Shown here piece by piece: positions 3,856 through 4,688 of a stretch of 11,653 bases of DNA. The notes under the pieces were generated by a model. The model was not told where the DNA came from and did no database searches. It was given only the letters and a program-made list of their open reading frames with translations. A program made the translations under genes and the position numbers. Origin of the DNA: a virus (taxonomy: Duplodnaviria; Heunggongvirae; Uroviricota; Caudoviricetes); IMG/VR virus record IMGVR_UViG_2579778842_000018, positions 1 to 11,653 of that record. One strand, written 5' to 3'. How positions within the stretch are numbered: the stretch's first letter is position 1; each line of letters starts with the position of its first letter.

Positions 3856-4688
3856 GCTTCAGGGCTGTTCCAGTGCGGAACGTTGTTATCAGGTAATGTT
3901 GATTGCTTCTGTCTGCTAATCTGCAGCCGCCTTGCCAGCTTCTGCTCCCACTGTGCCTGATGGTATGCCTTACCCTCAGCCATCCAGTAAATTCTGAACT
4001 CTGCAAGTTCCTGTGCCGTTGGCAGACTGTCCAGGTAGATCCCCTGCAATGAGCTTTTCCGAAGAAAGTCATCTGATGGCTGCCATTGTTCATGCATGAC
4101 AAATTTGCCTAATTGCCCTGGCCCACCAGGAGGAACAAAGTTATTCATCACGGCGTTGTTTGCGCCGGGGTCATGAGGCACAGAATCCCCGTTTTTTGTC
4201 CTGCTCTCCCTCTCTTGGTTAAATGACTGGTTATATGACTGGTTCTGGATCCCGTTTTTGGGATCATTCAACATCCCGTTTTTGGGATCATTCAACATCC
4301 CGTTTTTGGGTATATTCCCGTTTTCGGTAACATTACCGTTTTCGGTAACATTACCGTTTTCGGTAACATTACCGTTTTCGGGTTCATTGCCCCCCTCCCG
4401 GTTGCCTTTAATGTTCCCGTTTTTGGTTATATTAAGAGAGAAAACCCGCACTCTTTTTGTCGCTCCCTTTCTCTCTCCGGTATCTGAAATAAGCCCCATT
4501 TTCATGAGCGATATAAGCCCGGCCTGCACGGTTTTTTTATTCAGACAAGTGTCTTTAACGAGACGTTCTATGCTGGGGTAGCAGAGGTTATATTCATCGG
4601 CTCTGTCAGCCATCGAGAGCAGTATGAGCTTTAATGACGAGCTACCTGGATCTGTCTCCCAGGCCCAATCTGTTGCATGTCTGCTCAT
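3837..4688 (-). CDS. Replication initiator O-like protein (N-terminal winged-HTH, repetitive linker encoded by iterons), 283 aa
   Basis: ATG at 4688 with GGAG RBS. N-terminal HTH-like segment LKLILLSMADRADEYNLCYPSIERLVKDTCLNKKTVQAGLISLMKMGLI; central repeats ENGNVTENGNVTENGN / KNGMLNDPKNGMLNDP encoded by the DNA iterons; position directly upstream of the P-like gene as in lambda O-P. Confidence 0.75.
   Translation of the reverse strand: MSRHATDWAWETDPGSSSLKLILLSMADRADEYNLCYPSIERLVKDTCLNKKTVQAGLISLMKMGLISDTGERKGATKRVRVFSLNITKNGNIKGNREGGNEPENGNVTENGNVTENGNVTENGNIPKNGMLNDPKNGMLNDPKNGIQNQSYNQSFNQERESRTKNGDSVPHDPGANNAVMNNFVPPGGPGQLGKFVMHEQWQPSDDFLRKSSLQGIYLDSLPTAQELAEFRIYWMAEGKAYHQAQWEQKLARRLQISRQKQSTLPDNNVPHWNSPEAWEDFL
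4251..4433. repeat. Iteron array (about 8 direct repeats of 18-24 bp) inside the O-like gene: putative phage replication origin
   Basis: Two 24-bp copies CCCGTTTTTGGGATCATTCAACAT (4251-4274, 4275-4298), then 18-bp units CCCGTTTTTGGGTATATT (4299-4316), CCCGTTTTCGGTAACATT (4317-4334), ACCGTTTTCGGTAACATT (4335-4352, 4353-4370), ACCGTTTTCGGGTTCATT (4371-4388) and CCCGTTTTTGGTTATATT (4416-4433). Confidence 0.75.

Follow-up and report, generated by a model that had tools for sequence, protein, structure and literature searches.

Iteron plasmids such as RK2, F, and pPS10 combine a winged-helix initiator (TrfA, RepE, and RepA, respectively) with iterons of 17–22 bp and an adjacent unwinding element of 13-mers. 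Their origin lies outside the rep gene; the initiator usually binds these iterons as a monomer, and they are not dyads. That lambdoid phages carry an iteron origin within the gene for their initiator is textbook knowledge (PMC7466680). The iterons of ori-lambda (ATCCCTCAAAACGAGGGA and variants) are annotated at nt 349–433 of gene O. The Stx phages 933W and P27 have six iterons; iteron number differs between close relatives, and the extra iterons matter for replication (PMC7466680). The locus described here shares the initiator/iteron/adjacent-repeat plan that established knowledge ascribes to the plasmids and, like ori-lambda, occupies the central part of the initiator gene, immediately behind the sequence coding for the DNA-binding N-terminal domain (PMC7466680). 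Comparison with related phages makes it quite likely that this site (4216–4429) is the replication origin of a phiV10-like temperate phage, located inside the phage's own initiator gene.

The window (the whole stretch of DNA that was analyzed, 11,653 nt) is the early region of a phiV10-type temperate phage (genus Uetakevirus) integrated in E. coli. Its gene order is lambdoid and matches that of phiV10. The ORF list, Pfam, and PHROG place on the minus strand a cro-like gene (5055–5285), the 283-residue initiator (3837–4688), and a lambda-P-like helicase loader (3055–3855; PF06992, E = 1.5e-56; PHROG 109, "P-like helicase loader"). A small ORF (4704–4967) is on the same strand, the repressor gene (5440–6024) is on the plus strand, and RecE-like and RecT genes are on the other arm. 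The repressor contains two helix-turn-helix regions, one YdaS-like (amino acids 21–61) and one of the HTH_3 type (106–147), as the annotation of phiV10 p40 also notes. The initiator gene is 94%–95% identical in DNA sequence to phiV10 p43 (annotated "putative primosomal protein") and its counterparts in related phages, and 424 of the 5426 complete E. coli genomes (∼8%) contain it. The loader gene, which shares its first 19 nt with the last 19 of the initiator gene, lies directly downstream, as expected from the sequence-only reading, which had put a P-like gene next to an O-like ORF. An initiator followed by a PF06992 loader, with cro-like and repressor genes upstream, constitutes a lambdoid O-P module.

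A consensus scan located a promoter-like site upstream of the cro-like gene (TTGTTA-17-TATTAT, 5311–5339, minus strand) and a terminator-like site at 5014–5033. Both agree with the phiV10 annotation but are consensus matches only, and the count of promoter-like sites in the region is not above that in shuffled sequence. On sequence grounds, 5311–5339 is a candidate pR-type promoter, the transcript of which would run through the origin. Rfam gave no match in the window. Two 41,027-bp circular E. coli records deposited as plasmids (NZ_CP079771.1 and NZ_CP079768.1) each comprise an entire phiV10-like genome that includes the same initiator/P module; they have no replicon type in PLSDB and may be episomal or induced phage DNA. 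As evidence for autonomous replication, such records are only weak.

Pfam identified two domains in the initiator: HTH_36 (PF13730, amino acids 18–67, E = 2e-10; positions 4488–4637) and DnaT (PF17948, amino acids 196–264, E = 1.2e-15). Both matches are above the curated cut-offs, which places the protein in the HTH_36/DnaT-like class of initiators, and no other Pfam family matched at E ≤ 0.01. PHROG 1032 ("replication initiation protein") also matches, with E = 1.7e-111. The N-terminal winged-helix domain (amino acids 1–87; 4428–4688, minus strand) presumably binds the iterons; its wing motif, DTGERKG.T..V.V, is conserved in an alignment of 14 homologues. The C-terminal domain (amino acids 192–277; 3858–4115, minus strand) matches residues 85–170 of E. 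coli DnaT in phmmer searches (E = 7e-21; PDB entries 9zbt, 6aep, and 4ou6, E ∼1e-20). DnaT acts in the replication-restart primosome and binds single-stranded DNA through its C-terminal domain. Unlike the initiator, it has neither a winged-helix N terminus nor iterons, and its partners are PriA, PriB, and DnaC rather than a lambda-P-type loader. Presumably, the DnaT-like domain of the initiator contacts the P-like loader and/or single-stranded DNA. In several homologues, Pfam also reports weak matches to RP-C and DnaD_N. A single-sequence AlphaFold2 model of the whole initiator has a mean pLDDT of 37.7, too low for a fold search.

The designation "O-like" given to this protein from the sequence alone holds for presumed function and gene order but not for family. 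Lambda O belongs to PF04492 (Phage_rep_O), a family that matches lambda O itself with 5.7e-36 and has no match in the initiator. When the alignment of the initiator family was compared with the N terminus of lambda O, hhalign returned a probability of 1.4% (no homology), so common descent is not claimed. BLASTP of the initiator against lambda O, including its P-binding C-terminal domain, likewise gave no significant match. The initiator probably works like lambda O but stands outside the lambda O family.

Tandem Repeats Finder detected a 24-bp unit (2.6 copies, 4249–4310, 100% matches), an 18-bp unit (3.8 copies, 4314–4381, 98% matches), and a 12-bp unit (2.4 copies, 4216–4244, 94% matches). 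A second repeat search recovered the same repeat families, and no large direct repeats other than the iterons and 12-mers occur anywhere in the window. The iteron core, CCGTTTTYGG, occurs exactly eight times between 4252 and 4426, within 16-bp units that span 4249–4429. Two further matches, a one-mismatch copy at 4189 and an unrelated copy at 7823, bring the window to 10, where 1.7 are expected; none of 200 shuffles reached 10. The start-to-start spacings of the eight cores are 24, 24, 18, 18, 18, 18, and 45 bp from iteron 8 to iteron 1. All are multiples of three, and all eight copies therefore lie in one frame of the minus-strand ORF, where they encode ITKNG...EPENG-NVTENG (three times)-NIPKNG-MLNDPKNG (twice), followed by QNQSYNQSFNQ from the 12-mers. 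The array occupies nt 260–440 of the initiator gene, after the HTH_36 domain and before the DnaT-like domain. This bears out the initial description of about eight repeats of 18–24 bp that encode an Asn/Gly linker within the initiator ORF. Iteron origins are characterized by at least three clustered direct repeats of ∼17–24 bp and a cognate initiator in cis; here, eight cores spaced at 18, 24, and 45 bp lie inside the initiator gene itself.

In gene order, iteron 1 (TAACCAAAAACGGGAA, 4414–4429) is placed 45 bp from iteron 2 (AACCCGAAAACGGTAA, 4369–4384). The G-rich spacer between them (4385–4413) overlaps the 30-nt block of the gene that varies most among close relatives (nt 271–300). Three type B units follow: iterons 3 and 4 (TTACCGAAAACGGTAA, 4351–4366 and 4333–4348), which are taken as extra copies, and iteron 5 (TTACCGAAAACGGGAA, 4315–4330). 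Next come iteron 6 (TACCCAAAAACGGGAT, 4297–4312) and two type A units, iterons 7 and 8 (ATCCCAAAAACGGGAT, 4273–4288 and 4249–4264), the second of which is the last before the 12-mers; all lie on the minus strand. The site thus consists of eight ∼16-bp, A-tract-centered units and conserved 12-mers, directly after the winged-helix coding region.

Read in the gene sense, type A is ATCCC-AAAAAC-GGGAT with 24-bp spacing and type B is TTACCG-AAAA-CGGTAA with 18-bp spacing. As 16-bp dyads, iterons 3 and 4 have 6 of 8 symmetric pairs and iterons 5, 7, and 8 have 5 of 8, whereas all 16-mers of the gene average 1.9. Symmetry is weaker in the three outer or junction units (iterons 1, 2, and 6; 3 of 8 pairs each). 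Types A and B differ by paired changes at mirror positions (A..T versus T..A; C..G versus A..T), so that the symmetry is kept, which is what the site of a dimeric protein would show. The iterons of lambda are also dyads of 16–18 bp with an A-tract center and C/G-rich arms (ATCCCTC-AAAAC-GAGGGA, against ATCCC-AAAAAC-GGGAT here), and in lambda iteron 1 the reading frame has the same register with respect to the core (IPQNEG, compared with IPKNG). In both systems a stretch that is A-rich in the sense strand and less stable, in the window only modestly so, follows the iterons and precedes a P-type loader gene. Ori-lambda has four iterons and a 72%-AT tract, whereas the window has eight iterons of two types in one frame and a 56%-AT stretch with 12-mers.

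Three GATC (Dam) sites fall within 42 bp at the edges of the type A iterons (4248–4251, 4262–4265, and 4286–4289), against 3.4 per kb in the window. One overlaps the gene-sense 5′ edge of iteron 7 (TGATCCC), and iteron 8 has one at each edge. The cluster suggests a possible link to methylation or SeqA. On the plus strand, hairpin-plus-T-run sites resembling terminators occur at 4259–4302 and 4325–4356. We rejected them as terminators of the initiator transcript because they are antisense to the initiator gene and are made by adjacent iteron half-sites; they could block antisense transcription or be a by-product.

Unit number varies among close alleles, as it does in 933W and P27, although those Stx phages have true lambda-type O proteins and lambda-type iterons. 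In 72 of 82 close sequences, the gene is 816 nt long with six cores. The window allele (852 nt) has two extra identical 18-bp type B units, giving three where the commonest allele has one. Other alleles add 24-bp units, up to 11 cores, so the range is 6–11 with eight in the window. Third-codon diversity, calculated from 64 distinct 816-nt alleles, amounts to 0.0035 for the cores and falls to 0 for the 12-mers (no segregating third-codon site); the N-terminal domain reaches 0.032 and the spacers 0.063. The least variable stretch is nt 361–450 of the gene, and the 30-nt blocks at nt 271–330 are among the most diverse. The amino acids encoded by the spacers vary (NVTE, NIPE, NVPE, and NFTE), whereas the cores are fixed. 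The deficit in third-position variation is marginal (Fisher p = 0.055) and could stem partly from repeat homogenization.

More distant relatives were examined at the same site. We compared 14 phage homologues whose N-terminal domains are 27%–57% identical to that of the window initiator; they come from Edwardsiella, Vibrio, Acinetobacter, Burkholderia, Aeromonas, Pectobacterium, and Pseudomonas, and include an activated-sludge podovirus, E. coli Stx and PPompW phages, and mEp021. All 14 have tandem repeats directly after the N-terminal domain, starting at ∼nt 230–360. A scan of one genome per species, with a three-sequence alignment as query, added 27 loci, distributed over Gamma-, Beta-, Alpha-, and Deltaproteobacteria. 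Of these, 21 have an intact gene, always with repeats at the same gene position: 16 carry three to seven cores, confined to nt 240–520; two, from Acinetobacter, combine one core with other tandem repeats; and three have a different dyad repeat.

One and the same DNA core is read in two to three frames within Edwardsiella phage GF-2, Vibrio phage Her, PPompW, Bcep176, and EBPR podovirus 1, yielding peptides as different as PKNG, QKRD, PKTE, and SENG, among others. Among the relatives, the repeats also have periods of 17, 22, 23, and 25 bp. Since the core is read in several frames and the periods are not multiples of three, the conserved object is the DNA and not the peptide; these comparisons show that the selection keeping the repeats acts on DNA. 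All units of the window share one frame, so it is the relatives, and not the window alone, that demonstrate this.

The sequence of the repeats changes together with the initiator N-terminal domain across the 14 phages from different hosts, and the two stay linked while the C-terminal domain and the downstream helicase/loader genes are exchanged. The nine homologues with the wing motif DTGE(R/K)xG (eight exact; DVGMRKG in EBPR) have cores of the form CC[CG]AAA(A/T)..GG. In the five that lack the motif, the dyad repeats are different, for example ...GGCAGGAGCTGCC... in Stx2a_F403, GCAGATTCTGC in an Aeromonas phage, and CTGTGC...GCACAG in ZF40. A correlation between repeat type and initiator among related phages, as had been anticipated, is therefore seen, with nine motif-bearing proteins accompanied by CC[CG]AAA-type cores and five others that differ. 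The expectation that the iteron sequence would define the replication specificity of this phage needs a caveat: the iterons do vary with the N-terminal domain, but the core CC[CG]AAAA.GG is common to relatives from Vibrio, Acinetobacter, Burkholderia, and others. Because it is shared by several genera, the core marks a subfamily and not the window phage alone.

Phage GF-2 provides a natural module swap. Amino acids 1–127 of its "replication protein O" (known from annotation only) are 49% identical to the window initiator (57% in the N-terminal domain), through the part encoded by the iterons and the QNQS 12-mers. Amino acids 137–280 are 62% identical to lambda O amino acids 156–299, so the C-terminal half is of the lambda O type, whereas that of the window initiator is DnaT-like. 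The junction falls where the AT-rich tract of lambda ends. The GF-2 iterons are type A-like (ATCCCAAAATTGGGAT, 2.8 copies at 24-bp spacing, then CAGAATCAGTCAT) and also contain GATC. In this natural chimera, an N-terminal domain of the window type, with its iterons and 12-mers, stands in for the N-terminal domain, iterons, and AT-rich tract of lambda in front of the same C-terminal domain. Of all the single arguments that 4216–4429 functionally corresponds to ori-lambda, this chimera is the strongest. The P-like proteins of GF-2 (locus 2340–3026) and the window (3055–3855) are 36% identical despite the unrelated C-terminal domains of their partners, which raises the question of how P recognizes a lambda-O-type as opposed to a DnaT-type partner.

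The repeats that follow the iterons form a second element. In the gene sense, 4216–4244 (minus strand) reads AACCAGTCATAT / AACCAGTCATTT / AACCA and includes AACCAGTCAT at 4223–4232 and again at 4235–4244, downstream of the iterons in gene orientation. A short direct repeat noted earlier at 4224–4244 is thus real. Two copies of AACCAGTCAT are not by themselves above chance within the window (31 of 200 shuffles reach two); their significance comes from conservation in other genomes. In 31 of 37 loci, two to three copies of the pattern GAAYC-N2-3-YCA, 12, 13, or 17 bp apart, follow closely on the last iteron. The pattern has 56 matches in the post-iteron zone (5.6 per kb) against 0.15 per kb elsewhere, an enrichment that is somewhat flattering because the pattern was written after the sequences had been seen; the background rate nevertheless agrees with that predicted by base composition. 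It is kept in phages with different iterons (Stx2a_F403 and ZF40) and in Desulfovibrio, Zoogloeaceae, and Methylotenera, and the repeat with a 13-bp period is read in two frames (NQS and EPV). Interpretation of the 12-mers as IHF sites was dropped, as the consensus is not matched by eye.

Base composition distinguishes this zone from its lambda counterpart. The 12-mer zone of the window is 61% AT, and the 30-nt windows beginning at 4206 and 4221 (4206–4251) are locally less stable (z ∼+1.5); it is a minimum of stability locally but not across the window. AT content is 56% in the 50 nt that follow the last iteron, compared with 72% in lambda and 56%–64% in most members of the family. Scanning the zone against the window revealed no strongly AT-rich tract beside the iterons, and the intergenic AT-rich stretches at 2976, 5295, and 2552 are far more extreme. 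We propose that the 12-mer zone is the conserved second element of the origin, in place of the lambda AT-rich tract, and that it could be the unwinding or loading region. Beyond it lies a purine-rich tract (AAGAGAGGGAGAGCAGGACAAAAAACGGGGA in the gene sense, 4186–4215, minus strand) that ends in a degenerate iteron-like core (4189–4198, 1 of 8 dyad pairs). Tract and core vary among relatives and are probably not a functional site.

By analogy with ori-lambda and the iteron plasmids, we infer a sequence of events at this site. Dimers of the N-terminal domain would bind the dyads and build a bent nucleoprotein complex, and the adjacent, less stable 12-mer and purine-rich stretch would open. The DnaT-like C-terminal domain would then bring in the lambda-P-like loader in complex with host DnaB, while transcription from the early rightward promoter may read through the site. 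The repeat-encoded linker would serve as a tolerant, low-complexity tether, which leaves its DNA able to carry binding sites, and unit number would change by slippage or unequal exchange to give the 6–11 cores seen among alleles.

Three other explanations were weighed against an origin. One is that the repeats are nothing but a slippage-prone, low-complexity Asn/Gly linker: every unit in the window is a multiple of 3 bp in a single frame, the number of cores varies freely among alleles, and the encoded segment sits between two folded domains. It is contradicted by the frame data from the homologues, in which one core specifies unrelated peptides and the periods depart from multiples of three, and neither dyad symmetry with paired changes nor fixed cores between variable spacer residues would be expected of it; we consider it very improbable. 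Dyads could also be sites for a protein other than the initiator (a host factor, a phage regulator, or a defense or exclusion protein), and the three GATC sites among iterons 7 and 8 are places at which Dam and SeqA could act. Such a protein would have to account for repeats that track the initiator N-terminal domain in 14 phages of different hosts and remain with it through exchange of the C-terminal domain and helicase/loader genes, and we give this explanation very little weight.

It is somewhat easier to imagine, though still unlikely, that the initiator does bind the repeats but for control (autoregulation, titration, or copy pairing), with the true origin elsewhere, such as in an AT-rich intergenic region. 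Iterons also serve copy control in plasmids, and the window contains stretches far more AT-rich than the 12-mer zone, among them 2552–2582, which lies downstream of the DUF1064 gene and adjoins a perfect DnaA box (TTATCCACA, 2544–2552, plus strand) 1.7 kb from the array. A single DnaA box is at chance level, however, and the window has no other repeat cluster. The GF-2 chimera puts the module exactly where the working origin of lambda is, and it is hard to see what a conserved 12/13-mer beside the iterons would do at a pure control site. Both control and binding by another protein fit the module swap and the co-variation less well than does an origin at 4216–4429. The initial proposal of an iteron-type origin within the initiator gene, as in ori-lambda, is accordingly supported by comparison: repeats at the same site, a core read in several frames, co-variation with the N-terminal domain, and the GF-2 chimera all point the same way.

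The literature searched, in which few subscription journals were covered (absence is not proof), contains no description of an origin for phiV10-type phages or for HTH_36/DnaT-type initiators, and no binding, unwinding, or replication data for the latter family were found. phiV10 itself appears in papers on reporter and engineered phages. For phiV10-like prophages, the present analysis indicates where the origin and replication-specificity module probably lie and gives exact sites for mutation or cloning. The lambda rule, by which the linker part of the initiator gene houses the origin, would thereby also hold for another family of initiators, one found widely among Proteobacteria. Database records label the gene "primosomal protein" or "DnaT-like"; the analysis explains these automated labels, under which the initiator role was missed.

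Only the conserved 12/13-mer is potentially new, and it offers a concrete new target for studies of origin opening. It is possible, if on balance doubtful, that HTH_36 phage initiators across Proteobacteria share an intragenic two-part origin. This would consist of dyad iterons that track the N-terminal domain and a specific, previously undescribed 12/13-mer element that is far more widely conserved, differs from a generic AT-rich tract, is read in several frames, and outlasts changes of iterons, C-terminal domain, and partner. In such an origin, the 12/13-mer might be, for example, a site bound as single-stranded DNA during opening or a loading site. The core of the type B iterons (ACCGAAAACGGT, 4315–4366) equals the consensus papillomavirus E2 site, ACCG-N4-CGGT, with an AAAA spacer (PMC10095481), presumably through convergence on a bent dyad site.
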